A stretch of 64,000 nucleotides of DNA from Candidatus Alkanophaga volatiphilum (GCA_029259545.1 JAPHEE010000005.1:1143-65142), one strand, 5' to 3'. Shown: positions 160 to 38,278, counted from the stretch's first letter. Program-made: numbers and translations. The notes: generated by a model from the sequence alone, not told the origin.

Positions 160-461
160 TCGTGCACCTGAGCTGTCCTGACCTCCTCTCCCCGCTGAAG
201 CGGGGAGGCTCCCGACACGGGAGCTCCGGTTGCGGCAGACCGCATGCGGGTCGGTCAGGGAGCCATCCGCCGAGGGCGTGCCTCAGGGCATCACCGCCGA
301 TGCGTCGGGCGAAGGTATATTCAACACTTTCGACGAAGAGTATGAGATGCACGCAAGATAGGACGCCCGAAGTGCGGACTCAAATTAGATGGAGACCTGA
401 ACGCGGCGAGAAATATTGCCAAAAGAGCTAATAAAGCCGCAATTCCTCCCCGCTGAAGCGG
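160..461 (+). mobile_element. IS200/IS605-family tnpB 3-prime remnant bounded by two copies of a UGAA-loop hairpin
   Basis: 361-456 translates GRPKCGLKLDGDLNAARNIAKRANKAAIPPR*, which carries the zinc-finger CG and the RuvC-III D.NAA.NI signature of TnpB/OrfB C-termini. The frame is broken upstream. An identical 16-nt core CTCCCCGCTGAAGCGG lies at 188-203 and 446-461. The first copy forms an 8-bp stem, CTCCCCGC-TGAA-GCGGGGAG. Confidence 0.6.
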
Positions 462-1378: not shown

Positions 1379-2740
1379 ATGAAGTTCGAGCTCGATGAAG
1401 AACAGAAAACGATAAAGGAAGCAGTCCGAGAGTTTGCTGAGAAGGAGATAAAGCCGCGGGGACGGAGTTCGACAAGTCTGGCGAGTTCCCGTTCGAGATT
1501 CTGAGGAAAGCAGCGAAGCTAGGATATATTGCAGTATGGATACCTGAAACGGCGGTGCAGGGCTCGGCATGCTCGAAAACGCAATCATAGCTGAAGAGTT
1601 CGCAAGAGCGGACAGCGGCATAGGCTACGCAATATCATTGACTGCGATCGGCTGTCCGATGATCTACCGTTTCGGAACGGAAGAGCAGAAGGAGAAGTAC
1701 TTACCTTACCCCGAATCCCAAAGGGCGAGAGCATCAGTTTCCTTGGCGAGCCTGATGCAGGGAGCGCTGTCGCCGCTATGAAGACCGTTGCCAGAAAGGA
1801 AGGCGACGAGTATGTGATCAGCGGCAGTAAAATGTTCATCACGAATGCAAAAATTGCGGACTGGGGTGTCGTGTTTGCGAAGACCGTGCCTGAGGCAGGG
1901 CACCGGGGTATCAGCGCCTTCATCGTCGAGACTTCAACGGAGGGCTTCGAGGCAACGCCGATCGAGGGCGGCATTGTCAAGATTCTTGCTCGTGTTGCGA
2001 GACGTGCGCGTCCCGGCGAAGTGGTTGGCGAGGAAAATAGAGGCTTTTACCATCAGTCGCTAAGAAAGCCTCTCACTTTAAGGGGGATGAATTAGGGTGG
2101 GAATTTTTTATACTTCAAAGTGAGACGATCAAGTGCAAACGAGCCATGGGCTATATGCTCATGGTAGGGGCTGCGGTGACCCAGCCCGGAGGGGAGCGCA
2201 GGTTCATCCTGCACACTCTCCAACCTCCCAAGGCTTCCGGTGGAAGCCCTAGTCGGGGAGGAGGTCACCATCTCATGGAAACATTTAACGAGACAAGGAC
2301 ACATACCGCCGCTGTCCACGTCGGCATTGCCCAAGGCGCTTTCGATAGAGCTCTTGAATACTCAAAGCAGCGAGAAGCCTTCGGCAGAAAGATCTGTGAA
2401 TTCCAAGCGATACAGCACAAGCTTGCGAACATGCTCGTGAAGATCGAGACCGCCCGCCTCCTCGTGTACAAGGCAGCGAGTATGATAGATGCAGGCTTTA
2501 CGCCTACGAAATGGACATCAATGGCAAAGCTCGTTGCCGGTGAGGTCGCCGTCGAGGTGTGCTTAGAGGCAATGCAGATACTCGGCGGGCATGGTTACGC
2601 CGTCGAATACGATGTCGAACGTTTCTTCCGCGACGGAAGAGCAGGCACCGGTTGAAGGTACTTCGGAAATCCAAAGGAACATCTTGGCGAACATCATCCT
2701 CGGAAAGCTCCCGGAGGTCAAAAAAAGATCTTTAAAGTAG
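1379..2740 (+). pseudogene. acyl-CoA dehydrogenase, decayed (several frameshifts plus a MITE insertion)
   Basis: ACAD-like pieces lie in different frames: MKFELDEEQKTIKEAVREFAEKEIKPR, GGAGLGMLENAIIAEEFARAD, MKTVARKEGDEYVISGSKMFITNA, RDVRVPA/GEENRGFYH, then ETFNETRTHTAAVHVGIAQGAFDRALEYSKQREAFG...LGGHGYAVEYDVERFFRD, then EGTSEIQRNILANIILGKL* in a further frame. Removing 2051-2268 restores ttt tac cat ctc atg gaa = FYHLME. Confidence 0.85.
2051..2268 (+). mobile_element. MITE family A, copy 1 (IS200/IS605-like non-autonomous element) inside the ACAD gene
   Basis: Starts CATCAGTCGCTAAGAA directly after TTTTAC and ends GGGGAGGAGGTCAC. Excision restores the ACAD frame with no duplicated target. 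Homologous copies lie at 19934-20110 and 35495-35721. Internal TATA-like TTTTTTATAC at 2104-2113. Confidence 0.8.
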
Positions 2741-4807: not shown

Positions 4808-5047
4808 ATTTATCTTCCTGTTGCTTGCAAGACCCTGGGGATACAGGGGAGGTGGGTGGGAAAATTAAATACTCTGGATATATGGTGTAACGACGTAACA
4901 GCCGCAAGGCTGGGCAGCCGTAGGCTGGTAGAAGTAGCCCGTGAGCCGTAAGGATAACGGTAGTGGCGGCGTGAACCCGCCCGTGGGATAAAGCTCGTAG
5001 AGAGCAAACTCCCACGAAGCTCCGTCCGTTAGGGCGGAGTAGTTCAC
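4808..5047 (-). ncRNA. putative omega-RNA (reRNA) scaffold / right end of the decayed tnpB element (unit B1)
   Basis: Begins at the tnpB C-terminal codons (…HADLNASVNY; GTGAACTAC) and runs about 240 nt past the ORF. It is homologous along its whole length to 17749-18012 on the opposite strand. Similarity stops abruptly after ...GCAAGCAACAGRAAGATAAAT in both copies. Confidence 0.45.
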
Positions 5048-6343
5048 GGAGGCGTTCAGGTCTGCGTGCATCTTGCCGCACGTCCGCACACGAACTCTTT
5101 CCCCTTCCTTTCTCCCCTCTCTTCACATCTGGAGCATGTCGTTGATGTCCCGTAGGCGTATACTTCGTAACAAACACGTTGTTCCACAACACTTGCCTCT
5201 TAGGTGGTCGTATGCTTTCCTGAAAGGGAGTGTAGGATACTTGTTCCTGCTGAGCTTACTGCTGCACAGCATGGCAGCCTTCTGGTTTATGTAATAGTTC
5301 CTCTATGAAGACGAACGGGCGGGTACTGCGAAATGTACCTGCATATGCCGCCCATAACCGTTTTGTAATGGTTCTCCAGCGCATTCCCAAGCTTCTGCTT
5401 GGTTTTTCTCCTGTCCTTGTTGCTCCAGTACTCCACAATGCCTAAGAACTTGTGATCCACGAGGCTGCCGTTCTTATCCAGTACGGCGACGCAGTACGCG
5501 TCGGTGTTAAAGTCTATCCCTACGGCAAACTCTGGGCGTACATTTCAAACTCCTTGACGAAAGAAATGAGCAAGGTAGTATTCTTCCCCTTACCTTATCA
5601 GCTCAGCCCCGTTCGCAAGCTCCACCGGATGTCAGATTCTTGACGACCCAGAATGCTGTTGTTCTTCCCGAACCGGCGGTAATCCTCACGGTTCCATCCT
5701 CGTAAAGGTAGTAAGACCCGTTCCTCGCAAGCCTGATCGGAAGCTCTTCGAACTTCGGGGGTACAGTTCTCCCAAGAAGCCTGAAAGCCTCTATGACCTT
5801 GTCTATGCAGTTGATGATGACCTGAGAAGGTAGAGTGGGATACTTTTGCCTCCAGATGGTAGAAGTACTTCTGCACGACCATCTTGTTGGAATACTTCCT
5901 TTTTACGACGGGCGCTATGTCCTTCATCAGCTCGTTAGCCACACCGTGAACTACCCCAAGCTGAAGCTTGGGGCTTCCTCCCGCTGGAGCCAGCTTCGCA
6001 GCCTCCTGCCTTTGAGCGGCAGTTCACGGCTCCACCCCGGCGGGGAGCGGCATGTTCACGATGCCCCATGCCCGCTCTCCTCCCGTCTCAGCCTCCACAT
6101 CCGGAAGTTCGGAAGCCTCCCGAACGGGAAGCCGAGCAGGACGCATGCGTGCTATGCGGGGGCCACCCACGCACGTCATAATTACTAGAATATAAATATG
6201 ACGCCATTCACCCCCAAGCTGAAGCTTGGGCACTCTGGCGTCAAATCTTGTAGAATTCGTCGAGCCTCCATCTGTCCTCCTCGCTTACTATCAGCCTCCT
6301 CGTGTTCGTAACCTGACCTTGCTGGGAATTTTTTCTTCGCCAT
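5040..6343 (-). pseudogene. tnpB: tnpB (IS200/IS605 OrfB-type RNA-guided nuclease), frameshifted and carrying a nested insertion
   Basis: Minus-strand pieces in different frames: MAKKKIPSKVRLRTR.., ANELMKDIAPVVKRKYSNKMVVQKYFYHLEAK, VIINCIDKVIEAFRLLGRTVPPKFEELPIRLARNGSYYLYEDGTVRITAGSGRTTAFWVVK, FAVGIDFNTDAYCVAVLDKNGSLVDHK (RuvC-I, about 5500-5523), and TSTTCSRC...VCGRCGKMHADLNASVNY (zinc finger plus RuvC-III, about 5041-5110). Confidence 0.75.
5946..6230 (+). repeat. nested omega-like unit (C1) bounded by an identical 19-nt hairpin direct repeat
   Basis: CCCCAAGCTGAAGCTTGGG lies at 5954-5972 and 6212-6230. The unit starts GTGAACTAC at 5946. An AT-rich TATA-like tract, AGAATATAAATATG, lies at about 6187-6200. 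The unit is antisense within the tnpB pseudogene. Confidence 0.6.
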
Positions 6344-6777
6344 ACCACTTTGGTGAAGCGGTATTTGTAGTTTTCTCGCTTGGTGAAGCGAAAGTATATA
6401 TGGGAGGTCTGTGGAATGGTAGTCCCTGGGGGATTTGCCGCGTCAGCCGGCCCGCCACCGTCTCCGCTCCGCCATCCTCGCCGTGCGGAGAGCTACCGCG
6501 CATCGGTGAATCCAACTCCGTGAGTCTGATGCGGAGTAGGACGAGGGTTGGGAGATGGTGCGCGGGTGTGAGCACGGCTCGGGACGGATAGGGTGCAAGC
6601 TTCCGTCTTCAGACGGGAGAAGCTGACTTCTCTTCCTCTCTCCCCCGTGCCGCCGTCGTGCGTGCGTCGGAGCCTCGTTTGGAGGTTGCTGTCGGGCGGG
6701 TCGGAAGTTGGACGGCGGGCGGCTCGGCTCGTATGCAGCTCTGCGGCGCTGCTAGGGGGCGTCCTCGAAAGTTTTAT

Positions 6778-7887
6778 ATGCACTCCGGACTAGTTTTTTT
6801 CGGCGTGGAGGAGGTTGTCAGGGTCGCTGTGAGCGGGAGGCTGGGACCCCGCCGGAGGGTCAAGCTCCGCAGACTTTCTTCCGTCACAGACCTCGCCATA
6901 GTCAAGAAAAGGGGCAGGTACTGGCTGAGGGCTGGCGGGCGGCTTATCAGGGTCTTTTTCGACGATGTGGAGACGGTTGACGAGGCTCTGAGGGGCTTGT
7001 GGGAGGTTGAGGGGGCGGAGGTCGTAAGGAGGGGTAGAAGCAGGGTACTAATCAGGGTGCACTTCTGGAGGCGGGTCGAGGCTGCGGGGGTCGGAGGCGC
7101 CGGGGGCGGAAGCAAGCCCGAGCTCAAGCCCGAGCTCAAGCAGTCCGAGCCCAAGCTAGAGCCCGGGGAACCAAAGACGGTCGTCAGGTTGGAGCTGAAC
7201 GGTGCGAAGAGGGTGGTGGCTGCGACCGTGCTGAGTGGCGGGCGGGTCGTTGCCGAGACCAGCTTCAAGCTCGGCAGGAGGGTCGCCGACAGGCTCGTGA
7301 GCTACGTGAAGAGTTTTGAGAAGCCGATAATCGTGTGCGGGGACGAAATTCCGGGGTTGAGGGCGAGGGCGCGCCGCGCCGGGATCGAGGTCGTCGAGCC
7401 TTTTGACGGCAGCAGGAGGGCGGGGGCGAGGATCAACGTGAAGCCGCTCCTGGTCGGGGTTCTCGTGCTGCTGGCGACGGCTGCCCTCGCCATGGTTTAT
7501 TACTCTGCGTTCGGCGTGGCGACAATAACGGTCGAGAAGAAGCTGGACGTGAGCGTTGACGTGAGGGACGTTGTGGTGTACGTTCCGGGGATGGGGACGA
7601 AGGACATAGGGAACGTCACGGTGACCGTTTACGGCGCCGACACCGACTATCGGGTGATATTGCAGCTCGCAAACCTCGAAAAGTCCTGCGGCATCAGGGT
7701 CATAGCAATTCAGGTCTACGACGGGGACACGGGCGAGCTCAGGGGGATTCTCACGCCGATCACGCCGTCGCTGATAATGGACGAGTACGACGAGGGGAGC
7801 AAGACGTACGAGCTCAAGCTGTTCTACGTCGCCATACTGCCCGGCAGGGTGGAGGTTGCGGTGCAGGCGTCCGCCGAGCTGATGTAG
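6778..7887 (+). CDS. hypothetical protein; C-terminal TM helix plus beta-rich domain paralogous to 9393-9932
   Basis: GC-rich ORF. The tail INVKPLLVGVLVLLATAALAMVYYSAFGVATITVEKK...VEVAVQASAELM aligns with the whole 179-aa product of 9393-9932. Contains a KPELKPELKQSEPKLEPGEPK linker. Start is uncertain (ATG 6778, GTG 6805). An internal GTG at 7438 could give a separate 150-aa product. Confidence 0.55.
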   Translation: MHSGLVFFGVEEVVRVAVSGRLGPRRRVKLRRLSSVTDLAIVKKRGRYWLRAGGRLIRVFFDDVETVDEALRGLWEVEGAEVVRRGRSRVLIRVHFWRRVEAAGVGGAGGGSKPELKPELKQSEPKLEPGEPKTVVRLELNGAKRVVAATVLSGGRVVAETSFKLGRRVADRLVSYVKSFEKPIIVCGDEIPGLRARARRAGIEVVEPFDGSRRAGARINVKPLLVGVLVLLATAALAMVYYSAFGVATITVEKKLDVSVDVRDVVVYVPGMGTKDIGNVTVTVYGADTDYRVILQLANLEKSCGIRVIAIQVYDGDTGELRGILTPITPSLIMDEYDEGSKTYELKLFYVAILPGRVEVAVQASAELM

Positions 7888-8022
7888 CGGGGCGGCGGCG
7901 GGGCGGCGTCGTGTGCGTGTGCGGCGTCGTGTGCGTGCGGGTTCGGGTTTTGGGCTGCGGTTCGGGGTCGGGGTCGGAGGGTCTAAGTCACGGTTATAAG
8001 GCTGCGGGGGCAATTTTTTCTG

Positions 8023-9249
8023 ATGAACCGGGAGAGCATCGTAACCGGGCTTTTGGGGCTCGGGCTCGGGCTTGCGTTGTGCAGCGTCGTGCTGGCGTTG
8101 ACGTTTTCGAGGGTGGCGGGGGGCGAGGAGCTGACGTGGACGTACGGCACGCGCCTGATAAGGATAAACTGGGTCTGGCTTTCGAACCTCTTCCTCACGT
8201 GCGGGCTGGGGATGTTCGTGGTCGCCGCCCTCATGCCGGTGCTCAGGCGGGTGAGCCTGAGGACGCTTGCGGCTTCGCTCCCGCTCTCGGCTCTCTACCT
8301 CCTCATATCCGCCCTCGACGTCGTCACGACCCGTGTGCTGATAGACAGCGGCATGGGCGACGAGGTCAACCCGTTCATGGCTGCCCTGATGAACGTGTTC
8401 GGGACGGGCTACGCGCTGTCGCTCAACTTTGCGGTCTCGCTGTTCATAATCATAGCCCTCCTGTACTTTGCGGAGCGGCTGCCCCTGTTCTCGGCGGTCG
8501 TGCTCCTGATATCCTTCGTCCGTGGGCTGGTGGTGCACAGCAACATGAACATCGTCGAGGGATACACGCTGAGCACGTGGCTCGCAGCGCTGGAAAGCTC
8601 CCTGATCGAAAGCGTCCCGACCGTCATACTCTTCGCCCTCTCCGTGGTTCTGGGCGTGACGACCGCATTCGCATTCCCCGAGGAGGAGGGGGAGCGCCCG
8701 CAGCCCGGAGAACGCCCGCAGCCCGGGGAGCACCCGCCGTTCGGGGAGCGCCCGTCGCCCGGGGAGCGCCCGCAGCCCCTTTCGACTCCGACTCCGGGCT
8801 CGACCCTGCTGAGGGCGTCGAGAGCCGGCGCCGGCAGCGGCGGCGGGGGCGACGAGGAAAAAGGCGAGCTGCGGCTGCCCCTGCGGTCGCCGCCGTCAAC
8901 GGCGCCGTCAGCGGCGTCGTCAGCGGCGTCGTCGGCGTCGTCAGCGGCGGCGTCGTCGGCGGGCGGCGGGCGTGCGGTGCGGGTCGCCGAGGGGGCTGCC
9001 GGAAGGGTTGCCGAGGGGGCTGCTGAGAGGGCTGCCGAGGAGGTTGCCGGAAGGGCTGCCGGGGGGGTGGCGGGCGATTTGGGGGTGGGCGCCGTCGAGC
9101 TTGCGTTTCTGCTGGAGAGGTTCAGGATGGAGCGGGAGGTTTTGGAGGCGTTGCTGGAGGTGAGCCGGGAGGTGAGCCGGCGTAAGGGCATCCCGGTGAG
9201 TAAAGTGACCCTGCAGGACGTGATAGAAGAGCTCAAGAGGCGGTATTAG
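8023..9249 (+). CDS. polytopic membrane protein (DUF5658-like D..TT...E.NP core) with low-complexity tail
   Basis: Several hydrophobic helices. The block LLISALDVVTTRVLIDSGMGDEVNPFMAAL resembles DUF5658. Followed by (GERPQP)-type repeats, Ser/Ala and AEGAAGRV repeats, and a helical C-terminus. Confidence 0.6.
   Translation: MNRESIVTGLLGLGLGLALCSVVLALTFSRVAGGEELTWTYGTRLIRINWVWLSNLFLTCGLGMFVVAALMPVLRRVSLRTLAASLPLSALYLLISALDVVTTRVLIDSGMGDEVNPFMAALMNVFGTGYALSLNFAVSLFIIIALLYFAERLPLFSAVVLLISFVRGLVVHSNMNIVEGYTLSTWLAALESSLIESVPTVILFALSVVLGVTTAFAFPEEEGERPQPGERPQPGEHPPFGERPSPGERPQPLSTPTPGSTLLRASRAGAGSGGGGDEEKGELRLPLRSPPSTAPSAASSAASSASSAAASSAGGGRAVRVAEGAAGRVAEGAAERAAEEVAGRAAGGVAGDLGVGAVELAFLLERFRMEREVLEALLEVSREVSRRKGIPVSKVTLQDVIEELKRRY
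8688..8777 (+). repeat. five tandem 18-nt coding repeats (GERPQP GERPQP GEHPPF GERPSP GERPQP)
   Basis: Read directly: GGGGAGCGCCCGCAGCCC and its variants, head to tail. Confidence 0.9.
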
Positions 9250-9392
9250 CGTCACGCCGTGGCAGCCGGCGTCCGGCAGCCGAGCGGCACGCCGACGGCG
9301 GCGACAACAAAGTGACCCTCACCCAGCATTGCGGCTTTGTCCGAAAAATCTGAAAAAAATAGAAAAAGACTACTGCTTGAGAGCTATGCTAA

Positions 9393-9932
9393 CTATGCGC
9401 TTACCAGCTCAACTGACGCCCTGACTCCTATGGTGATCGTCCCGTCTTTGTATGCGATGCCGTTAAGTTTGAGGAAGTACGTCTTGTTGCCAATACTTGT
9501 GGCGGTATCATTGATGACGAGCGTTGGCGTCCACGGCGTCAGGAAGCCTTTTAGCTCATCGCCGGAATCATACTGGTGATCACCGTCGTCCTTATAAACT
9601 GCTATCGCTATCGATCTGATGTCGCTCAGATCTCCAGTAGCTCCTTTTCCCAACGCTGGAGCGTCGATGATGAGCCTGTATGTTACCGACGATCCGGGGA
9701 TGCTTGATACAGTGACGTTTACCTTTCCAAAATCTTGATTCGTCCAGATTCCCGGTGCGTACAACGTCGTGCCGCTAGGTTCGGAATACACTTCGAGAAT
9801 TTGCGTTGCCGTCACCGTCGCCGTGCTGTATGCGGAGTAGTAGACCATAGCCATGGCTGCGAGGGCGATGACCGTCACCGCACCCACTGCGAGCGCCTTC
9901 TTGTTCACCCTTCCGCTCGTGCCTCCCTTCAT
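9393..9932 (-). CDS. small secreted or membrane-anchored beta-rich protein, paralogue of the C-terminus of 6778-7887 (TasA/DUF1102-like pilin candidate)
   Basis: MKGGTSGRVNKKALAVGAVTVIALAAMAMVYYSAYSTATVTATQ..., with an N-terminal basic stretch plus a hydrophobic helix. Alternating beta-like pattern; ends VRASVELVSA, compared with VQASAELM in the paralogue. AT-rich promoter-like tract upstream at about 9960-9990. Confidence 0.6.
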   Translation of the reverse strand: MKGGTSGRVNKKALAVGAVTVIALAAMAMVYYSAYSTATVTATQILEVYSEPSGTTLYAPGIWTNQDFGKVNVTVSSIPGSSVTYRLIIDAPALGKGATGDLSDIRSIAIAVYKDDGDHQYDSGDELKGFLTPWTPTLVINDTATSIGNKTYFLKLNGIAYKDGTITIGVRASVELVSA

Positions 9933-10245
9933 TCACACCCCCGGTGGGAGGTGGATGAAAGCCGTATTTAAAACTTTCGACACTTTTATATCGGTTGGGT
10001 CGGCGGGCGTGGTCTTGCGGCGTCGTGGCGGCGTGCCCGCCCGGCGGCGGCGTCAGCGGCGGCGTCGTCGGCGGGCGGCGGGCGTGCGGGCGTGCGGTCG
10101 TGCGTCGTGCGGTGCGGCGGCGTCGTCGTGGCGGGGGTGGGTGGGGTGGAGGGGAGGGGGTGCGGCGTTGCCGAAAGTCGTTGCTTGCTTTCAAGCGGGG
10201 GGCGGGTGGTTAAGTTTAAACCTAAATCTCTAGGGGGGGATCTGG

Positions 10246-11352
10246 GTGCGGTGTTTGATAGTTCACCACTGGGACGCCGACGGCGTGAGTTCTGCGGCGC
10301 TCCTCCGCATTCTGCTCGGGCGTGGCGTTTTCGGCGAGCCGCCCGTGGAGGTGACGAACGTGACGCCGGAGATCGGCGTCTACTCGCTCGAGGGCTTGCG
10401 TCGCCGCATACGTGGGGGTTACGATCTGGTGATCCTTGCGGACATTTGTTTTTCGAGGGGGGAGGTTTTGCGTCTGAAGGAGCTTGCGGGCGCCGAGAGG
10501 CTGTGGATCTTCGACCATCACCACCAAGAGGAGGTTCGGGGGGCGGGCGTGGTGCACGTGAACCCGGTGATCGGCGGGGGCTGGTGCCCGTCGGCGTCGT
10601 GGCTGCTGGCGGAGCGCTTCCGCACGCCCTCGCCGCGGTGCGAGTTCCTGAAGGTCCTCGGGGCGGTCGGCGACCTCGAGGGCAGGATAAGGGAGACGGA
10701 AGCCTACCGGGACGTCGAAAGGTTTTTGGGCGGCGTGGGCATGAGCTTCGAGGAGCTTCTGCACGCTGCGGAGCTCGTCGATTCCAACTACCGGGTGGGC
10801 TGCGTCGAGTGCGTGGAGGAAGCCGTCCTGAAGCTCTTGGAAGTTGAGAAGCCGCAGGACGTGCTGGAGGTGGCGGAGTGGCGGGGGAGAGCCGAGAGGG
10901 TGAGGGCGGAGATAGAAAAGTGGGTTTCGGGGTGCGGGCGGCGGAGCCGTGAGCTCACGACGGCGGGCGGACGCAGCGTCCTGATATGCGAGATGGACAC
11001 ACGCCTCCACATAATCTCGGCGGTGACGAGGCGGCTGGCGGCGGCAAACCCCAAAAAGATCGTCGTCGTCGTGAACAGGGGGTTCGAGCGGGGACGGGGG
11101 CGGCAGCCGGAGGCTGAGGCGGAACCGGAGCCGGAGGCTGAGGTGGAAGCTGAGCGGGAGCGGCGGGTGCGGGGCGGCTTCCTTCAGATATACGTGCGGA
11201 CGCACCTCGGCGTCGATCTGACGCCGCTCATCCCGTATATGAGGGGGAGGGGCTGCTCCGCCGGCGGGAAGCGGGAGGTCGTCGGGGTCGTCGCACCGCC
11301 GGGCGCCGCCGCCCTCGAAGGTCTGGAGGCGTTTCTGGCTCGCAACTTCTGA
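10246..11352 (+). CDS. DHH-family phosphoesterase (RecJ-like fold)
   Basis: LIVHHWDADGVSSAALL (DHH motifs I/II) and WIFDHHHQ (motif III). Carries an acidic repeat insert, GRQPEAEAEPEPEAEVEAERER. Confidence 0.7.
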   Translation: MRCLIVHHWDADGVSSAALLRILLGRGVFGEPPVEVTNVTPEIGVYSLEGLRRRIRGGYDLVILADICFSRGEVLRLKELAGAERLWIFDHHHQEEVRGAGVVHVNPVIGGGWCPSASWLLAERFRTPSPRCEFLKVLGAVGDLEGRIRETEAYRDVERFLGGVGMSFEELLHAAELVDSNYRVGCVECVEEAVLKLLEVEKPQDVLEVAEWRGRAERVRAEIEKWVSGCGRRSRELTTAGGRSVLICEMDTRLHIISAVTRRLAAANPKKIVVVVNRGFERGRGRQPEAEAEPEPEAEVEAERERRVRGGFLQIYVRTHLGVDLTPLIPYMRGRGCSAGGKREVVGVVAPPGAAALEGLEAFLARNF

Positions 11353-11783
11353 GGCACGGGCGGTCGTGGGAGTGAGGCGGAGGTGACCGACCGTTCCGGT
11401 TACGGAGACCGTTCTGGTTCTCCGCTACTTTCATAACTTTTGATGCGTGTGTAGCGGAGAGCCTTCCGCGGAGAGCCTTCCCTCCTCCCATCCTCATCGG
11501 AGGGCTTTGGGGGGACGAAACTCCCCACATCTATCTTCCGTAACTCCGCCCTTCGGGCTTACCTCCCTTCCCGCATTCCGGCGGAGCTCCTACAAAAACC
11601 GTTAAAGGTTTCGAAGTTGCAAAAGTTACCGTACACGTTCCGCCCGCACCGCCGAGCCGGCTTCACGCGCCCCCCGCCGCAGGCGGCGTCGCCCCGTGCG
11701 GCGTCGCCGCTCCGTGCGCCGTCGCCGTGAAAGCCGGCTCCTGCCGTGCGGGCGGTCGTGGAAGTGGGTGGGGGGCGGAGCGG

Positions 11784-12209
11784 ATGCGTCCGGACTTGAG
11801 TCCGGATTCGGAGCTTGTGAGGAGGGCGGTGGAGTTCCACGGGCACTTGGGACCGTTCCTCGTTTTGGGTCTGAGGGCAGGGCTTCTCGCATTGGAAAGA
11901 CTCGGGGCTGCGAAGCACGAGCTGAGCGTCGTCGTGGAGACGGAAGACAAGCCGCCGGCGTCGTGCATCATCGACGGGATACAGGTTTCAACAGGCTGCA
12001 CTCTGGGAAGGGCGAACCTGCAGGTGAAATGGCATGAGGGAACGCCTAAGATCACCTTCAAGAAGGATTCTAGGCTCTTGGTGCTGAAGGTAAGAGATGC
12101 GGCTCTGAAAGAGATCGTAACTAAGATAGAAGAGGGGGGCAGTGAGGCTGCCGCTAAGGATGTCCTGTATAAGGATGAAAAGCAGTTATTTGACCTCAGC
12201 GCCCCTTAA
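11784..12209 (+). CDS. FmdE/FwdE-domain protein
   Basis: VEFHGHLGPFLVLGLRAGLLALERLG and IIDGIQVSTGCTLGRANL are typical of the FmdE family. ATG at 11784 preferred over the upstream GC-rich extension. Confidence 0.75.
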   Translation: MRPDLSPDSELVRRAVEFHGHLGPFLVLGLRAGLLALERLGAAKHELSVVVETEDKPPASCIIDGIQVSTGCTLGRANLQVKWHEGTPKITFKKDSRLLVLKVRDAALKEIVTKIEEGGSEAAAKDVLYKDEKQLFDLSAP

Positions 12210-15979: not shown

Positions 15980-16363
15980 ATGCAGATGAGTCAGAGCATA
16001 AGGAGTGAAGTTTATGAGATATCTGAGGAGATTTTAGCCAAGGTAAGAGAGTTGATGAGCGCGGATTTCTCTGAAGTGCTATCAATTTTAAAAGCGGTTT
16101 CCGACCCTACACGGTTGCGTATACTTAAATCTTTGCTCCTAGAGGAGCTATGCGTCTGCGTGTTCGTGGAGACCACAAAATGCAAGTATCCTGCCCTCTC
16201 TTACCACTTAAAGACGCTGAAGGACGCCGGATTGGTAACCTCGGAACGAAGGGGCAGCTTTTTGATATACAAGCTAACTACCCTAGGAAAATATGTTTTA
16301 AAGCTCATATCCATGCTGGAGGAATATATACGATCTGGGCTCAAGTCCGATGATACGGATTAA
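15980..16363 (+). CDS. ArsR/SmtB-family transcriptional regulator
   Basis: LKAVSDPTRLRILKSLLLEELCVCVFVE...LSYHLKTLKDAGLVTSERRG. Confidence 0.9.
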   Translation: MQMSQSIRSEVYEISEEILAKVRELMSADFSEVLSILKAVSDPTRLRILKSLLLEELCVCVFVETTKCKYPALSYHLKTLKDAGLVTSERRGSFLIYKLTTLGKYVLKLISMLEEYIRSGLKSDDTD

Positions 16364-18647
16364 GGCTGAGGCTCTCACCATTTTTGCGCTTTCGATGCTA
16401 TGCCCGCCTGTCTGCATAGCGTTGCATGGCACAGCGCTGCACGTCCTCATTACCGAAATATGCCCTGATCCGTACGGCAGTGACGAATGCGAATACGTTG
16501 CGCTCACGAATCCACTCCCTTACGCCGTGCGGCTCGAGGGTTGGCAGCTGTGCGACCTCCATTCCACCGTCAAACTGCCTGAAATTGCGCTGCAGCCCTC
16601 GCAAACTGTCTATCTAGTGAAGAACGTTTCCACTCTCGACGTAACGGCATTAAAAACATCCTTGGGTGCCGTCACGCTCAACAATGATGGCGACGCAATT
16701 TCGTTGCTCGACGAGAAGGGGCGATTGATAGACACTGTCGCATACGGCACCGTTCCGAGCGACATCCGCGGCTGGAGCGGAGAGCCGCTGAGAACGCAAG
16801 AAGGTATTGTTCTGCGCCGCAAGTCTGGGAACGAGGGCTGGAAGGATTCCGACTCTTGGAGGGACTGGTTTCCTGTAGCTTTCGAACATCGGGATAGAAC
16901 TGCTTTCAACGTAAAGACTTTTTCTTTTTTCGGCTGCGTAACAGCGTTCGTTTCGCCCGATTGCAGCTTTGAGGTGGTGTCAAGTGAAATAGAGAACTGC
17001 TCAAACGTAGTTTTTCTTAACGTGTACGAGTTTGAAAGTTTTCCACTGGCAGAACTTCTAGTGAGGGCAATAGAGCGTAACGTTACCGTTAAAGTCCTCT
17101 TGGAGGGGTCGCCTGTTGGAGGGCTGAGCGACGACACGCTGACGATTGCAAGAATCATTAAGGGAAGCGGCGGCGAGGTGCGGCTTGCGAGGAGCCGCCC
17201 TAAGATGTTCAACCATGCCAAGTATGCCGTATTAGACGGCGGTGTGCTCGTGCTTTCTGAAAACTGGAAGGGCGTTAGCATGCCCGTAAGAGAGACCCTT
17301 GGTGGCAATAGGGGCTGGGGAGTCATTATTCGTGACGAAAACGTATCTTCTTATTTCAAAGAGCTCTTCCTCGAAGATTTTAGGTTTAGCGAGCCTTTTA
17401 GCGGAGATGCTATGAGCGTCGGGATAGACGAAGGAAATGTCAACTACCACCTGCTAAAGCCGGTGGCTTGTAGTCCCCAGTGTGCGTTCACTGCCCACTT
17501 GGCTGCGTTCACTCACGCTCCTCGGGCTTGGTCGGGCTCGTGTGAGCGTCCGCAGCCAAACGCTCACACCGAACCGCTCTCATCGCCCTCTGAGCGCCGC
17601 TTGCACACCGAAGACATGAAGCTGGTTGACCGCAGCCCCTGTAATAGATACGCTCCTATTATATATGCGCTTCCGCAATTCCCTCACAAGCTGAAGCTTG
17701 TGGCACCCTTGCGGAAAAATGATGTGGAAAAAGGTGTGGAGGGTAGAGGTGAACTACTCCTCACTTACGCAAGGGGCTTCGTAGGGAGTTTGCAGGTCGC
17801 TGCCTGCCTTATCCCCACAGGCTGGCTTACGCCGCCACTACCCGCTATCCTTACGGCTCACGGGCTACTTTCAACAGCCTACGGGCGGTCCAGCCTTAAC
17901 GGCTGTTACGTCGTTATACCATACAACTTCAAATTTAAACTTAACTACCCGCCCGCCTCCCCTGTATCCCCACGCTCGCGCATGGAGTCTTGCAAGCAAC
18001 AGAAAGATAAATTTGAAGCACGCACCATATCCGGAAATTTTGAGGTAAGGACGTTTGTAGCACCCGAAAACATCCTGTGCGATGACCCCATTTTAGAAAT
18101 GATAAATTCGGCGAGGCGTAGAGTTTACGTTGAGATGTTCTCCGTGCAGAACGAATTTTATAGCGAGCTGAATCCTTACGTTGCAGCATTACTAGCGGCA
18201 GCACGCCGGGGCTGTGAGGTGAAAGTGCTTTTCGACTCCCGTGACTATAATTTAGAGCGGGGTGACGACAACGACGATGTCTTGGCATTTTTGAACGAAG
18301 TGGCAACTGCTGAGGGTTTAAAGCTAGAAGCAAGGCTTGCAGACCTCAAGGCGTTAGGCTTTAGCAAAATCCATAACAAGGGCATCATCGCTGACGACAG
18401 CGTTTTGATCTCATCGTTTAATTGGAACGAGGGCGCCCTCGACAATCGAGAAGTGGGCGTCGTCGTCACGAACGCCGAGCTTGCGAGCTACTTCGCAGAA
18501 GTCTTTCTCTACGACTGGAACGCCAGTGGCGGGAGCGTCAAAAAAGTCAGCAGCAATAAAACGAAAACCGTTGTCGGTACGGCTGTCGCCTTGGTCTCCG
18601 CCTATATTATTTTCCTCGTGGTCAGACGCCTCAGGTATGGGTGGTGA
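16350..18647 (+). CDS. secreted two-HKD phospholipase-D-superfamily protein with N-terminal lamin-tail-like domain; carries an IS-derived insert read through in frame
   Basis: Signal-like N-terminus. LITEICPDPYGSDECEYVALTNP resembles an LTD. HKD motifs FNHAKYAVLDG and IHNKGIIADD. C-terminal TM helix. About 190 non-protein-like codons (about 17.44-18.01 kb) lie between the two HKD halves. Confidence 0.75.
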   Translation: MIRIKAEALTIFALSMLCPPVCIALHGTALHVLITEICPDPYGSDECEYVALTNPLPYAVRLEGWQLCDLHSTVKLPEIALQPSQTVYLVKNVSTLDVTALKTSLGAVTLNNDGDAISLLDEKGRLIDTVAYGTVPSDIRGWSGEPLRTQEGIVLRRKSGNEGWKDSDSWRDWFPVAFEHRDRTAFNVKTFSFFGCVTAFVSPDCSFEVVSSEIENCSNVVFLNVYEFESFPLAELLVRAIERNVTVKVLLEGSPVGGLSDDTLTIARIIKGSGGEVRLARSRPKMFNHAKYAVLDGGVLVLSENWKGVSMPVRETLGGNRGWGVIIRDENVSSYFKELFLEDFRFSEPFSGDAMSVGIDEGNVNYHLLKPVACSPQCAFTAHLAAFTHAPRAWSGSCERPQPNAHTEPLSSPSERRLHTEDMKLVDRSPCNRYAPIIYALPQFPHKLKLVAPLRKNDVEKGVEGRGELLLTYARGFVGSLQVAACLIPTGWLTPPLPAILTAHGLLSTAYGRSSLNGCYVVIPYNFKFKLNYPPASPVSPRSRMESCKQQKDKFEARTISGNFEVRTFVAPENILCDDPILEMINSARRRVYVEMFSVQNEFYSELNPYVAALLAAARRGCEVKVLFDSRDYNLERGDDNDDVLAFLNEVATAEGLKLEARLADLKALGFSKIHNKGIIADDSVLISSFNWNEGALDNREVGVVVTNAELASYFAEVFLYDWNASGGSVKKVSSNKTKTVVGTAVALVSAYIIFLVVRRLRYGW
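17439..18012 (+). mobile_element. two tandem tnpB-3-prime/omega-RNA-like units (C2 then B2) inserted in the PLD-like gene
   Basis: Unit starts are GTCAACTAC at 17439 and GTGAACTAC at 17749. Hairpin CACAAGC-TGAA-GCTTGTG at 17685-17702, preceded by TATTATATATGC. 17749-18012 is the reverse complement of 4808-5047. The left boundary is uncertain. Confidence 0.65.
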
Positions 18648-19933: not shown

Positions 19934-20110
19934 CTGACCTCCTCCTGAGGGCGTCCACCGGGGAGGTTGAGAGGCGTGCAGCACGAACCGCTCCCTCGGC
20001 TTAGCACCAGCCCCGCCCTAGGTGTGGCTCGCTTCAATCCTCAGCTCCGCTCACGTATAAAAACTTTCCCACCTCCCCCTAATCCCTTAGGGCTTTCTTA
20101 GCGACATTTT
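19934..20110 (-). mobile_element. MITE family A, copy 2 (shorter, diverged)
   Basis: In element orientation: GGTTTAC|AAAATGTCGCTAAGAAAGCC...GGGAAAGTTTTTATACG...CCTCCCCGGTGGACGCCCTCAGGAGGAGGTCAG. TATA at 20055-20064. Confidence 0.65.
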
Positions 20111-20228
20111 GTAAACCGGGTTTTAGCCAAGACTTTCGTTGCTTACGTCGCTCATAGCCTCAAACAGCCATCAATCTGGTCGCATGAGAGCAAAAACTTT
20201 TTAAGATTCGAGGTCTAAAAGCCTTAGA

Positions 20229-25800: not shown

Positions 25801-26098
25801 ACTACCCTACCTTACTCTCCTCTTAGGGATGCAAGAAAGAGAAAAGGAGAAAAATTCCCCTTTCCTCCCTCGCATCTACCAGCAGCTGCTCACGCCGCAC
25901 GCCTCAGCGTGGGACTCACGTGGGCGAGCCTTGTGTGAACCTCAATCGAAGGTACATAAATAACTTTCCCCTCGTTGGCATAAATGTCTTGGGGTATGGG
26001 GAGTTGCGCCCGGGCGTCAGTGCCGGGGTGAGCAAAAGCGAGCGGAATTCGGCTCGGCGGCGTCAATAATATATCTCCTTTTAAATGTGCGGCTGCAT

Positions 26099-27070
26099 TT
26101 ATACCACCTCCCAAATGCCAAAATTCCCTATTGAAAGTGCTTTATCACAAACAAACTGCGAACCCGGGGTAATACAAATTTTAGCAACTTGGCTTATTTT
26201 TTGTCCTGAACCTCTCTCATTCCATTCTCTTCCAACAAGTGGTTCGATATCCCCCCTAATTAACTTGGCGCCCAGATTCTCGACGTTAACGTGGGAAAGA
26301 GCAATCATATACTCGCTCCTACTGCTTATCGTTAATCGCTTCTTTGCAGTATCAACTAGCATTCCAGAGCCAAATAAATCAACTTCCTCGTTAGAGGATT
26401 TTTCTAAAAGTATTTTTACTTTTCCAAACCCATAATTTCTTTCTCCTCCAACCCATATTTCATTTAATTTGACCTCATTAACTTCGATGGAATCCGTAAA
26501 TGATATTGTAAATGATATTCCTAAATCATGCATTTCTACTTCAATTTTTTGGGAAGTGTCTTTTACAAAGAAGTATCCCATAAAAATAGTAGGTTTAACC
26601 GTTTCACATTTTATTTTATCCCTAATAAACTCAATCTCGTGAAGTGATCCCTCTTCTGCGGACTTCGAGGTCTTATCTATAGCTGTTGAAACAAAGGAAG
26701 AGATAAAAATTCGTTCAAATTCTTCCAAAGAAATCGCTTTTTTATACTTGCATACACCAAATTTTAGACCATCCTTCTTATACCACGGAGCAAAAACTTG
26801 CTGAATGTGTATTTTTCCGTTTGCTCTCTTGTATTCCACTGGATAAAAGTAGGAAAACTTAATGTTTTCATTAAGACGTTTACCGATTATTCGATATGCC
26901 TCGGGGCTATAATTCTCCATAATACTCTTAGCTATCAAACTCGTTAATGCCCCCCAGACGTTCTTAGCTGGGATGTAATATCTAGTTCTGTCAACTACAC
27001 CTAACTTTGCACCATAACCGATATGTATCGGTGCTTTTGCCTCCAGATAAACTCTGTAGCACGCCCACAT
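26099..27070 (-). CDS. cmr3: type III RAMP protein, Cmr3/Cas5-like (last gene of the operon)
   Basis: N-terminal APIHIGYGAKLGVVDRTRYYIPAKNVWGALTSL. C-terminal glycine loop VGGERNYGFGKV. Position matches cmr3 in III-C loci. Confidence 0.6.
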   Translation of the reverse strand: MWACYRVYLEAKAPIHIGYGAKLGVVDRTRYYIPAKNVWGALTSLIAKSIMENYSPEAYRIIGKRLNENIKFSYFYPVEYKRANGKIHIQQVFAPWYKKDGLKFGVCKYKKAISLEEFERIFISSFVSTAIDKTSKSAEEGSLHEIEFIRDKIKCETVKPTIFMGYFFVKDTSQKIEVEMHDLGISFTISFTDSIEVNEVKLNEIWVGGERNYGFGKVKILLEKSSNEEVDLFGSGMLVDTAKKRLTISSRSEYMIALSHVNVENLGAKLIRGDIEPLVGREWNERGSGQKISQVAKICITPGSQFVCDKALSIGNFGIWEVV

Positions 27071-27074
27071 GAGA

Positions 27075-27605
27075 TCACCTTAAAGATCGGGCTCTGTAGA
27101 GGGCGTAGGTTAACATTTGCTCTAAGATCCGTTTGACGAAGAACATTTGAGGTATACTTTCTAAGATACTTCCATCCTTAGTTAATTCGTTTCTAAAAGT
27201 TGTTTTTAATTCAGCCCAAATGGGATCTGGATCGTTTCTATCATTTTTCCCTTTGAGTAATAATTTCAATTTCTCATCCTTAGATGCGAAGAAGTCATTT
27301 GGGAAATGTAATTTATCGAGTTTATTGAGAAGTTTTGCAGAGTAAAACATTATTAATCGATGTATCTTTTCATCATCCCCTATACTTTTTTGTGAGTTCT
27401 TTCTTTCATCCCACGTAATATTCTTACCTTCGGACTCTAAATAGATCAAATAAGCAAAAATCCCTTCTTGTGAAAGGACGGCTAGCGCTTTTCTGATGGC
27501 ATTTTCCTGTTTTGAGGGATCAAGTTGTTTTGTTGGATCACTTGGATCCTTATCCTTGGGTATTGAAAATCCAATTTCAGCGCAAAGCCTGTCAATGTTA
27601 GTCAT
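27075..27605 (-). CDS. cmr5: small helical subunit, Cmr5/Cas11-like (by position, size and composition)
   Basis: 176 aa, predicted all-helical by composition, lying between cmr4 and cmr3. I recognise no strong motif. Confidence 0.5.
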   Translation of the reverse strand: MTNIDRLCAEIGFSIPKDKDPSDPTKQLDPSKQENAIRKALAVLSQEGIFAYLIYLESEGKNITWDERKNSQKSIGDDEKIHRLIMFYSAKLLNKLDKLHFPNDFFASKDEKLKLLLKGKNDRNDPDPIWAELKTTFRNELTKDGSILESIPQMFFVKRILEQMLTYALYRARSLR

Positions 27606-28842
27606 CCCCCTGCACCTCCCTGCAGACTTTTTCCCAGTTGGCAGCTATTTTTTGCATCTCTTCTGTCGTTTGCCTAATTTTCTCTTGCAGCTCCTTTATC
27701 CTCACATTTATTATATTTCTTTCTTCATCTGCTTTTATTTCCTTTAACTCCTCTTTTAATTTTCTTATCTCGCCTACGAGGTTATTAGCTTGTATTTCGC
27801 TTAATTTTACTTTGTCATACTTTTCATCTAAACCGAACACCTTAAACTTACCAAATCCTCTTGTGCCCATTCCTCCAACGCCCAAGAACTCAAATAACTT
27901 GAATCCGGTTTCTACTGTACTGACGATATCGTTTAATCCCAGATTCAGTCCGAAGTGTTCGGGTTTTTGATACACGACATCGAAGTAGAATATCGTAGTT
28001 CTCGGTATTGCTTCGTAAGTGAATAATGCACCTTCCTCAGCAGCTCCAGTGGTTGGATTTATTGAAACCGACGTTCTCACTTCTAAGTTTGAGTCTACTA
28101 TCTGAGAAAAGACAGAATTGCTAACGATGACCAGTCTGTTGAGGATTTCCTCTAAAATTTCAACTTCTTTGTCATTGAGCAATCTATCCCTAAATTTTAA
28201 TCCATCAGCGCCAAAAAGTGTATCAACACAGATGTTATGGGTTGTAGTTTCGCCGTTCTCTTTTTTCTTTAATTGAAGCAATAACCAGCCAAAGTTTAGA
28301 AATCCAGTGTCTTCTAATTTTGATTTCAAGTAATTAGATACTACGCAGAACCTACTTTCGTCGAAATCCTGCCATGCGCCTTGGTCAACATTCAGTTCCT
28401 TAAGTCTACTTGGGCAAGTAACCCAAATCGGACCTATAAGAGATGCTACTGGGAAGAATAGTATTTTTGCATCTGAGAACAGAGCCATTCCTTGGAGGCT
28501 TTCTGGCTTATTATCCTCTTTTGCACCTTCACTGTTTGTATATCCAAATGTTACACAAATTTTACATTTATAGTTTTTATATTTGCAACCTCCATCTTGC
28601 GGTTTTTTGTTGTGTTTTTCCTTATCTGCGCATTGAGGTTGCTTAAAATAAAGTGCAGCGTAAGTTCTTGTTGTACCTTCTATACTCGTTCCCGGGATCT
28701 TTGGTATTCCATCAAAGTCTCTGAGTGTTGGGTTGTCCACTCTTCCGAGCGTGTAACCACCGGTACCAACATGTATTGGATCTATCGCCATTCCAAAATA
28801 GATTTTTCTTTCATAGGGCTTATCCATATTGTTCACCTCCAA
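27598..28842 (-). CDS. cmr4: Cmr4 (Cas7 backbone subunit) with a C-terminal coiled-coil-like tail of about 70 aa
   Basis: AIDPIHVGTGGYTLGRVDNPTLRDFDGIPKIPGTSIEGTTR and GMALFSDAKILFFPVASLIGPIWVTCPSRL. Glycine loop GVGGMGTRGFGKF. Tail LSEIQANNLVGEIRKLKEELKEIKADEERNIINVRIKELQEKIRQTTEEMQKIAANWEK. Confidence 0.85.
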   Translation of the reverse strand: MEVNNMDKPYERKIYFGMAIDPIHVGTGGYTLGRVDNPTLRDFDGIPKIPGTSIEGTTRTYAALYFKQPQCADKEKHNKKPQDGGCKYKNYKCKICVTFGYTNSEGAKEDNKPESLQGMALFSDAKILFFPVASLIGPIWVTCPSRLKELNVDQGAWQDFDESRFCVVSNYLKSKLEDTGFLNFGWLLLQLKKKENGETTTHNICVDTLFGADGLKFRDRLLNDKEVEILEEILNRLVIVSNSVFSQIVDSNLEVRTSVSINPTTGAAEEGALFTYEAIPRTTIFYFDVVYQKPEHFGLNLGLNDIVSTVETGFKLFEFLGVGGMGTRGFGKFKVFGLDEKYDKVKLSEIQANNLVGEIRKLKEELKEIKADEERNIINVRIKELQEKIRQTTEEMQKIAANWEKVCREVQGDD

Positions 28843-34333: not shown

Positions 34334-34616
34334 CCCTTATGACCTCTCCTAAGTAGTGGGCATCCAGTGAGGCTCGCATTTACCCCGGGCAGCCTACCAC
34401 TGTACACAATGGGGAAGCATCATATAAGAACCTTTCTCAGCCTCTGCTGTATTACTCCTTAAAAGCCTCACCCTAAGCAGCGTGTTCTTCGTACAACCCC
34501 GCTTAAGGTAAGCATCCAGCAGATCCGTGGAGAGCTGAGAATCAAGGTGTTCTCACCAAATTTACATATCCACACGTACTTGTCTTTTACGACCCACATG
34601 GCAACTTTGGAGGAGT

Positions 34617-35860
34617 TTAACAGCAACTCGCCACCGATACTTGCATCTTGTTGTAGGCTGTGAAAAATTCGTCTCTATCAGCGATAGAATCCCACGAGAT
34701 GTTCAACACAAATAAATACGAAGAAGCGTTTGTGTAGAAGTCAAAAGAATCGCCACCCCAACCTGCTGCCGCCTGCCTTGCCGTGTCTTCATCTATATGC
34801 AACTCAAGCATCGTCCTTATGAAAAACTCGCCAAGAACGTCAGAGCTTAGCGTCCAGCCTTCACCGAGCGGTAGTTCTGCATTTGTCACGTTCTTGCGGG
34901 GTTCTCGGCTGAAATATTTGTTGGGATGAATTATTTGTTCCGTTGTCGTGGGAGGGTCTAAGAAGGCAGCGTTCACAGCGTCCTAGCTTCCTTCTTCGTA
35001 TAAACGAGAGACGAAAATCTTGCCCTCGACGTAAGGAAATTCCATGAACGCGTCTAGGGTCCTTTCGAGGAGGCTTTCTGAAGACGAGCTCCCAAAAGCG
35101 GCAGCTTCGACGCTCGGCTCTCTCCCCTCATAAAGATCAGTAGTTATGCAGGCGTCGCCCTCGATGAGCGCCCGCGCTGCCATCAGTTCATCGAAAGTGC
35201 GTCTTGAGAGCAACCTCGTGAGATCAAAATGCTGGTCTTGGAGCACGTGCACGTATTCATGCGGCAGGATTTTCCGCAGCAAAGATGCCCTTTTTTCGGA
35301 AATAACGAAGACTTTGTTCCAGGGATCATAGTACGCCACTACATGTTCCGCTTTATGCTCGACGCTCACCTCCTTAATACTTTCATTCTCATCTGCCATG
35401 AACAATGCCTTTAACATCAGTTCACTTCTGTTATCGAGGTTGCTCGTCTGTTTGCCAATTTCCTCGGGACTCATGAACTCGTACGGAACTTCATGTGACC
35501 TCCTCGCTCAGCAAGGGGCTTCCACCGGAAGCCTTGGGAGGTTGGGGAGTGTGCCATAAGGCGCTCCCCTCCGGGCCGGGTCACGGCGGCCCCTGACCGC
35601 AGGTTGTACCCACGGCCTCGTTGCAAACCTATATTGTCTTCGGAGTATAAAAATTCTACTCCTGCCAGCCCCCCGCCCCAATTCATTCCGCCCTCAGGAC
35701 GAGCCTTCTTAGCGACTGATGGTAAAAGCTCTAAGCCTCTTATTTCCTCCACTTTGTGTATTATTTCAGCTTCATCCAATCTGATACACTGGTGATATGC
35801 CGTTACCAAGAGAGTAAGTACGAAAGCGGAAACGAGCGCAACCACTACAAGACGCTTCAT
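34617..35860 (-). pseudogene. secreted HExxH zinc-metalloprotease-like gene, split by a MITE and a further stop or frameshift
   Basis: Signal-like MKRLVVVALVSAFVLTLLV. HEYVHVLQDQH in the middle piece. AAGWGGDSF in the last piece. Removing 35495-35721 joins gag ctt tta cat gaa gtt ccg = ELLHEVPYEFMSPEE in frame. A second break lies at about 34977-34983. Confidence 0.7.
35495..35721 (-). mobile_element. MITE family A, copy 3, inside the protease gene
   Basis: In element orientation: GCTTTTAC|CATCAGTCGCTAAGAAGG...GTAGAATTTTTATACTCC...CCTCCCAAGGCTTCCGGTGGAAGCC...GCGAGGAGGTCAC|ATGAAG. TATA at 35645-35654. Confidence 0.8.
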
Positions 35861-36048
35861 GGAAATAGTTTGTGAATGTTAACAAAAATTGCTTGTGGAG
35901 TCCAGTTCCCGCGGCATAGACCAACAAGGTTTTAAACTGGGCGTGATATGTTAGGGGTGTGCCACTAAAATCCTTCTTCGTAAGGTTGATCCCGAAGTTC
36001 GTGTTCAGGGTGCCATTCTTAGAGAGATTTATATTTCTTGCGAGCAGG

Positions 36049-36915: not shown

Positions 36916-37056
36916 GCATTCTCATGCGGCACCAGTAATTTTTATCGATCCGGCGTATTATGTTCTTGCTAGCATCTTCCCCTCATCATCGCCTCTCTTC
37001 AATCTTTCAGCCGCTAAAACATCCAAAAACTTTTATATTGGCGCCAATCTTGTCGT

Positions 37057-38277: not shown

Positions 38278-38278
38278 A

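Follow-up and report, generated by a model that had tools for sequence, protein, structure and literature searches.

A 64,000-nucleotide stretch of DNA from Candidatus Alkanophaga volatiphilum (GCA_029259545.1 JAPHEE010000005.1:1143-65142), hereafter the window, carries three copies of a short repeat, family A. We consider it likely, with a probability of roughly 0.8, that family A consists of palindrome-associated transposable elements (PATEs), or miniature inverted-repeat transposable elements (MITEs), derived by internal deletion from a ~1.2-kb TnpB-only (IS1341-type) IS200/IS605 element of hydrothermal archaea, with the promoter and the guide-RNA module kept. This is a known kind of mobile element, the omega-RNA-bearing PATE/MITE, represented here by a new family in an Alkanophaga-like alkane-oxidising archaeon. 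Direct support comes from ends held in common with TnpB elements, TTAC targeting without duplication, covarying helices and TnpB relatives within the genus. Each copy retains a hairpin-bearing left end with AAAG or AAGG at the foot, a promoter, a scaffold of ~130 nt and a right-end cleavage site.

Results

Family A in the window

Inspection of the window and alignment of the copies bore out the coordinates and strands that an earlier note on this DNA had given for the three copies. All three lie directly 3' of TTTAC, as had been claimed, and they share the proposed right terminus GGAGGAGGTCA(C/G), which takes the form GGAGGAGGTCAC in copies 1 and 3 and ends in TCAG in copy 2. The features are as follows.

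2051..2268, + strand: copy 1, whole element of 218 nt, within an acyl-CoA dehydrogenase gene that reads as a decayed pseudogene
2046..2050, + strand: TTTAC target of copy 1, outside the element; also the predicted transposon-adjacent motif (TAM) of TnpB
2056..2086, + strand: left-end core of copy 1, GTCGCTAAGAAAG followed by a weakened hairpin (subterminal, 2069-2086)
2105..2113, + strand: archaeal TATA-like box TTTTTATAC of copy 1, with GGGTGGGAA just before it
2130..2268, + strand: omega-RNA-like (HgcC-like) module of copy 1, with six helices and the right boundary at TCAC; 134.2 bits on R1, the covariance model of the family
2137..2229, + strand: tnpB remnant in copy 1, last 31 codons, located by tblastn
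2269..2288, + strand: predicted guide segment of the copy-1 transcript, flank CATCTCATGGAAACATTTAA, placed from the guide position in TnpB omega RNAs
19934..20110, - strand: copy 2, whole element of 177 nt, intergenic, short subfamily; 39.4 bits on R1
20111..20115, - strand: TTTAC target 5' of copy 2
20055..20063, - strand: TTTTTATAC box of copy 2
35495..35721, - strand: copy 3, whole element of 227 nt, splitting the gene of an HExxH protein
35722..35726, - strand: TTTAC target 5' of copy 3
35645..35653, - strand: TTTTTATAC box of copy 3
35495..35630, - strand: omega-RNA-like module of copy 3; 134.3 bits on R1

Two-block patterns, GTCGCTAAGAA..TTTTTATAC and CAACCTCC..GAGGAGGTCA, matched the window at these three copies only, with zero matches expected by chance (100 shuffles). 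The elements start 5 nt before GTCGCTAAGAA, a correction of the 6 nt proposed earlier. The TTTTTATAC box is invariant across the copies; its presence in each of them had been predicted correctly, while its distance from the left end, thought to be fixed at ~55 nt, ranges from 47 to 68 nt. The outer CCTCC...GGAGG helix, enclosing GGCTTCC-GGT-GGAAGCC, was likewise confirmed. The left hairpin of copy 1 consists of 5 bp and an 8-nt loop, compared with 7-8 bp in full-length relatives; in copy 2 the left hairpin is shortened (CCCTAA/TTAGGG) and helix 1 is partly deleted. The boundary of copy 1 can be slid by up to 3 nt, because CAT stands at both edges. The GCTTTTAC flank common to copies 1 and 3 was considered as an extended target and ruled out, only the T-rich positions -5 and -6 being conserved.

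Disrupted host genes

Excision of positions 2051-2268 in silico yields ...GEENRGFY/HLMETFNETR (the slash marks the junction), which aligns without gaps to GEEGEGFKIAMQTLNKTR of the acyl-CoA dehydrogenase 1ukw. Excision of 35495-35721 yields ...RGLELL/HEVPYEF, colinear with distant homologues such as RGLELMHQVPCSV in P0125. The two restorations proposed in the earlier note, FYHLME for copy 1 and ELLHEVPYEF for copy 3, are supported by these comparisons, and at both gene junctions no base is duplicated and none is lost, as that note had also stated. The acyl-CoA dehydrogenase gene (window ~1370-2655, + strand) carries at least four frameshifts besides the insertion and has the appearance of a decayed pseudogene. 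The host of copy 3, previously called a protease, does contain an HExxH motif but has no Pfam match. In the window, the effect of the insertions is simply two broken genes. An ATG at 2146, inside copy 1, opens a 169-aa open reading frame (ORF) that continues in frame across the right end into the 3' part of the dehydrogenase.

Full-length relatives and deletion derivatives

Relatives were collected from hydrothermal metagenomes with a strict right-end pattern, and the right-end module was found at 51 loci, most of the relatives being 177-286 nt in size. At 8 of the 51 loci, an ORF of 350-370 aa lies between the same ends, in an element of ~1.2 kb. This ORF is TnpB, as judged from NCBIfam guided_TnpB (NF040570; 171.5 bits, cut-off 100) and a match to Pfam PF07282. 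No tnpA was present beside tnpB at any full-length locus examined, and the parent is therefore taken to be a TnpB-only, IS1341-type IS200/IS605 element. The TTTTTATAC box lies ~21-25 nt 5' of the TnpB ATG in full-length relatives, which identifies it as the promoter of tnpB in the parent; the same box-to-ATG distance suggests that the tnpB mRNA is probably leaderless. The internal TATA box, read earlier as a promoter that the elements may export, is now identified as that of the parental tnpB, and RNA reading into the flank would fit a TnpB omega RNA.

The RNA module of the full-length relatives spans the last ~35 codons of tnpB and stops at TCAC, and copy 1 keeps TnpB residues 320-350 (81% identity, E 1.5e-11, tblastn). 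Judged from these sequence comparisons, the short elements are internal deletions of the TnpB-only element, in which the left end with its hairpin, the tnpB promoter with its TFB recognition element (BRE) and TATA box, and the last ~130 nt overlapping the tnpB 3' end have been retained. The elements, earlier described as passenger-less, contain no protein gene; they are not truly passenger-less, carrying the guide-RNA scaffold of a TnpB-only element. At least seven distinct deletion junctions were recognised, each of which leaves the promoter 25-45 nt upstream of the scaffold, and at four of them the right-hand sequence can still be read as (G)AKNILKRA codons. Several junction classes recur at many different sites; the deleted forms themselves have therefore transposed. 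The 3' flanks are different at every locus, and near-identical modules occur at different metagenome sites.

A looser pattern, CAACCTCCN{12,40}GAGGAGGTCA, run on a genome collection returned 117 loci, all of them chance matches and none with GTCGCTAAGAA, and scans of viral contigs gave chance matches or nothing. Among the relatives, a short TTTAG-type and a TTTAC-type element stand head to tail in L160 (~1216-1668), and in L181 (2424-2563) an autonomous tnpA+tnpB element is inserted directly behind the TATAC of a TATA box belonging to another element.

End anatomy and target choice

TTAC stands directly 5' of the element in 29 of 30 independent sites of the GTCGCTAAGAA-type (type-1) left end, and TTTAC in 26. 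A second type of left end, GA(A/C)GATGTTGC(T/C)GCTAATCC, has TTTAG directly 5' in all five of its sites; the two types, with TTAC and TTAG targets respectively, share a single scaffold. Comparison of the flanks revealed that the suffix of the 5' flank equals the prefix of the 3' flank over 0-2 nt only, that is, no target duplication. A left hairpin of at least 5 bp was found in 30 of 35 copies, 18-19 nt from the cleavage site, and its stems are diverse and compensated (CTCCGTCC/GGGCGGAG, CCCTCAC/GTGAGGG, CTTATGAA/TTCATGAG and CCACCGAT/ATCGGTGG). The tetranucleotide 5' of the hairpin foot is AAAG, AAGG or AGGG with the TTAC target, and AATC with the TTAG target. At the right end, the foot of the last hairpin is 10 nt from the boundary, the hairpin being followed by AGGAGGTCAC (10 nt) with TCAC as terminal tetranucleotide. 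The ends are asymmetric, with no terminal inverted repeats.

For IS608 of Helicobacter pylori, the published values are a TTAC target, a left spacing of 19 nt, the guide AAAG and, on the right, cleavage at TCAA, 10 nt away from the hairpin (PMC3201880), and scarless insertion is the usual result of IS200/IS605 transposition (PMC3201880). Family A resembles IS608 in its left cleavage and target sequence, in the AAAG at the left foot, in both spacings (18-19 versus 19 nt on the left, 10 nt on the right) and in the lack of a duplication. It differs in its right cleavage site, TCAC, and in having parents with tnpB only, and the ends of the two share no sequence similarity. The IS608-like geometry, together with the C-to-G / G-to-C co-change of the target and the presumed guide, argues for Y1-TnpA chemistry; the guide tetranucleotide would base-pair with the target. 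The flanks tabulated across relatives (TTAC in 29 of 30, no duplication), the compensated left hairpin, the spacings and AAAG all agree with the non-autonomous element of IS200/IS605 type that the earlier note had proposed.

A covarying RNA module related to HgcC

The last ~130 nt of the element fold into six helices plus the enclosing CCTCC/GGAGG helix. Covariation was assessed on a MAFFT alignment of 41 distinct modules. Paired cells amounted to 94.2%, compared with 40-51% in slid controls; 27 pairs were changed on both sides (5-14 in slid controls), as were 136 cells (9-25 in slid controls), and 0 of 500 shuffles matched the observed pairing and covariation values. In the last right-end hairpin (helix 7), double changes occur in six of six pairs. 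RNAalifold returned the same fold in part. The fold is specific to the tnpB-sense strand, because G-U pairs are frequent. The covariance analysis suggested in the earlier note thus reveals strong covariation across the 41 modules.

A search with the Rfam model HgcC (RF00062) gave 27.5 bits for copy 1 (E 7.6e-5 when a 201-base stretch was searched, 0.024 for the entire window), and no match to copies 2 and 3 at E up to 1. Relatives scored 25-49.2 bits (E down to 2.4e-8), with full-length relatives at 38-49 bits. At the gathering threshold, a search of the window with Rfam and a tRNA scan found nothing. The module is a relative of HgcC, though no member of it by the Rfam criterion. HgcC, known from Methanocaldococcus, Pyrococcus/Thermococcus and Archaeoglobus, shares with family A the GGGCUG...CAGCCC helix, the G.UCC-GU-GGA.C hairpin and a 3' GGGGAGGAGGUCA(G/C); like the family-A module, it occurs both in IS1341-type tnpB genes, at their 3' ends, and standing alone. 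Family A differs from it in an extra 5' helix and another central part. Transcripts of HgcC arise in T. kodakarensis from inside IS1341-type tnpB genes and also from two solitary copies (PMC4247193). In Halobacterium, HgcC RNAs have been associated with RNAs from tnpB 3' ends and with one derived from a PATE, and RNAs of both kinds are expressed (PMC4615843).

A further HgcC-like module lies at window 170-303 (- strand), with its end GAGAGGAGGTCAG at 178, and gave the window's best match to Rfam HgcC (44 bits, E 8.6e-7). It is adjoined on the opposite strand by a remnant of a different TnpB C-terminus (KCGLKLDGDLNAARNIAKRA; 373-432, + strand).

Host lineage and sources of TnpB and TnpA

Proteins of the window cluster at ≥90% identity with proteins of Candidatus Alkanophagales and Candidatus Alkanophaga liquidiphilum. 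Family TnpB genes are annotated in Candidatus Alkanophaga liquidiphilum, at contig ends, and the right end of one (the omega-RNA region) is 89% identical to the copy 1 module. In a sister assembly, the 416-kb contig L177, which comes from a related species, is syntenic with window 35919-39725 at 81% identity. It carries a full-length TTTAG-type TnpB element at 9914-11091, directly upstream of a prenyltransferase gene; window 35860-35960 has none. Upstream of this element, synteny with the window is lost, and the elements thus mark a rearrangement breakpoint.

The search for a Y1 transposase had two outcomes. The window itself returned none by tblastn with IS200 and IS608 TnpA queries, and its ORFs of ~400 aa encode a RAMP, a Na/H exchanger, a GTPase, a radical SAM protein, a thiolase and similar proteins, with no TnpB among them. 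Elsewhere, an autonomous element in L181 (sister assembly ERZ26872906) encodes a 130-aa Y1 transposase (PF01797) and a TnpB of 52% identity, and its left end carries the family signature AAAATGTCGCTAAGAAAG-hairpin-GATGAATTAGGGG; a degraded TnpA remnant was also found in L156, a dataset rich in family-A copies. A short match in L177, YHFVFYPKYR, was rejected as a TnpA candidate because it represents low-complexity noise.

All TnpB members, including the TnpA-linked P0081, have glycine at the position of the canonical RuvC-II glutamate (IAIG[ND]L; AIGNL), together with an invariant alternative glutamate in E-x-x-T-S-x-x-C. A TnpB class with a 'rearranged' RuvC-II has been published (PMC10691335), and the family TnpB, judged by its motifs, fits this class. 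A catalytically dead, TldR-like TnpB was set aside, given the same substitution in P0081, the invariant glutamate before T-S-x-x-C and the match to the rearranged class.

Other repeats and regions of the window

A second repeat family, B, is present at 4815-5047 (+) and 17749-18005 (-), with a right-end-like part at 5946-~6200 (-) and a fragment at ~10175-10266 (+). Its left end is TT(C/T)CTGTTGCTTGCAAGAC after (T)TTATC, it has a BRE/TATA-like GGGCGGGT.GTTAAGTTTAAA, and its right end is ...GTAGTTCAC. Since it gives weak matches to the family-A RNA model (E about 0.02), family B is probably another IS200/IS605-derived PATE family. A 765-aa ORF at 16350-18647 (+), with lamin-tail and PLD-like domains, runs stop-free through an opposite-strand family-B copy of 257 nt; because 257 is not a multiple of three, this ORF may be a fusion or chimera made by the insertion. 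The family-B left-end fragment at ~10175-10266 (+) places a TATA-like TTAAGTTTAAAC ~25 nt before the GTG of the DHH-domain ORF at 10246-11352, and because of this spacing the promoter of the DHH-domain gene may be transposon-derived.

The region at ~6000-12000 has a G+C content of 62-67%, compared with about 53% elsewhere, and is full of tandem repeats with short units (GGCGGCGTCGTC..., GGGCTGCCGAGG...); on both of its strands there are long ORFs that overlap, with weak Pfam matches only (DUF5658, DHH). An island of 33-38% G+C at ~26000-34500 encodes RAMP-family proteins and a 1060-aa ORF without a Pfam match, and is probably an acquired type III CRISPR-Cas module. Copy 3 of family A lies just outside its edge.

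Discussion

Family A closely resembles the omega-RNA PATEs of Geobacillus stearothermophilus (Meers et al. 2023) and VNG_R0052 of Halobacterium salinarum (Gomes-Filho et al. 2015), which have fused ends and no protein gene, subterminal hairpins, insertion at a short motif without duplication, and a right end that bears the guide-RNA scaffold for a TnpB encoded elsewhere. Unlike those, it forms a sequence family of its own, which comes from a thermophilic, Alkanophaga-like archaeon and from metagenomes of hydrothermal origin, and it retains the archaeal BRE/TATA promoter of tnpB, at no fewer than seven junctions. Like the sotRNAs of Halobacterium salinarum (from IS1341-type tnpB) and the ISDra2 omega RNA, the predicted transcript would be a sense RNA over the tnpB 3' end to the right boundary, with a guide from the flank. 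It differs from these in that the module is detached from tnpB and set directly behind the tnpB promoter.

Under the interpretation that we favour, the copies would be moved as single-stranded DNA by a Y1 TnpA acting in trans, inserting 3' of TTAC. Transcription from the retained promoter would then run through the scaffold and on into the 3' flank, with a start predicted ~23 nt 3' of TTTTTATA, or at an internal AAAAATATAT in full-length copies. The flank-derived guide would match the copy's own empty site (TTTAC plus flank), so that TnpB supplied in trans could cut vacated sites with that guide, after which recombination would restore the copy. According to Meers et al., omega RNAs are often encoded by PATEs, and TnpB is needed in trans. 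As a tentative extension, which we regard as possible rather than probable, the short elements may be selected 'guide-only' parasites of TnpB and not mere debris, persisting only if they express their own guide and recruit TnpB in trans for site defence. Such guide-only persistence is suggested by the seven or more junctions that keep the promoter and an intact scaffold, and by the two left-end types with one scaffold.

Several points weigh against the derivation from a TnpB-only parent and its proposed mode of action. No tnpA and no intact tnpB are present in the 64-kb window. The right end of the L181 element differs from that of family A (...GGAGAGTGTCAA, terminal GTCAA), and for this reason cross-mobilisation by its TnpA is only plausible. 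The canonical RuvC-II glutamate is missing in the family TnpB, and the HgcC scores are all below the Rfam gathering cut-off of 50 bits. The pattern used to collect relatives preset the enclosing helix (helix 5) and a portion of the GGCTTCC hairpin (helix 6), so that these carry no weight for conservation. Finally, the three window copies are old and divergent, with identities among them of only 60-73%, and the weakened hairpin of copy 1, together with the partial loss of helix 1 and the TCAG end of copy 2, may mean that mobility or a working guide has been lost.

These last features, the shortened left hairpin of copy 2, the lack of tnpA and tnpB in the window and the several frameshifts accumulated in the acyl-CoA dehydrogenase host would also be expected if the window copies were dead remnants of an ancient burst, immobile, untranscribed and unused by TnpB, with gene disruption as their only effect. 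We consider this unlikely, though it is the strongest of the rival explanations: copies 1 and 3 each reach 134 bits on the family model and have every helix intact, the copy 1 module is 89% identical to one belonging to a TnpB gene of the same genus, and the TATA box is unchanged in all three copies. Near-identical modules at differing metagenome sites indicate, therefore, that the family is active now or was so recently. It is improbable that the copies are domesticated small-RNA genes, whose HgcC-like RNA serves the host in regulation or stress independently of TnpB and transposition. Such a role would be in keeping with the improved growth of Halobacterium on overexpression of a PATE-derived RNA and a tnpB 3'-end RNA (PMC4615843), with the expression of two HgcC RNAs without transposase genes in T. 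kodakarensis (PMC4247193) and with the promoter and full scaffold kept by every deletion derivative. However, the copies lie at non-homologous sites and break genes, no orthologous copy exists at the syntenic position of L177, the flank is precisely what varies, as expected of a transposon guide, and the structure is common to TnpB-linked copies.

The exact, scarless boundaries in two coding sequences, in sense orientation, might recall an intron-like insert spliced from mRNA by bulge-helix-bulge processing or self-splicing, as in IStrons, which would leave the split genes functional. We hold this to be very improbable: copy 2 and the majority of the metagenome copies lie between genes or in either orientation, the dehydrogenase host is a multiply frameshifted pseudogene, and scarlessness is normal for IS200/IS605 transposition; no Rfam intron family matched, bulge-helix-bulge motifs not having been explicitly searched. 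The small size, the several copies and the lack of coding capacity would suit a classical MITE moved by a DDE transposase, an explanation refuted by the absence of terminal inverted repeats and of target duplication in 30 sites; the family-A ends, moreover, are asymmetric and common to TnpB elements.

What remains most interesting is that independent deletions have always kept the promoter and the scaffold, a natural experiment on what non-autonomous IS200/IS605 elements need in order to persist. If the guide-only interpretation is true, the element's promoter would incidentally drive sense transcription of host genes, such as that of the MSPEEIGK... part of the HExxH gene. The finding accounts for several gene disruptions and assembly breaks in Alkanophaga-type genomes; TnpB genes lie at contig ends, and a short-read contig with window genes is only 17.5 kb. 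It also connects HgcC, an RNA family long without an explanation, with TnpB guide RNAs in one more lineage, and points to a compact thermophilic candidate editing tool, a RuvC-II-rearranged TnpB of 350-365 aa with a predicted TAM of TTTAC/TTTAG and a defined scaffold of ~130 nt.

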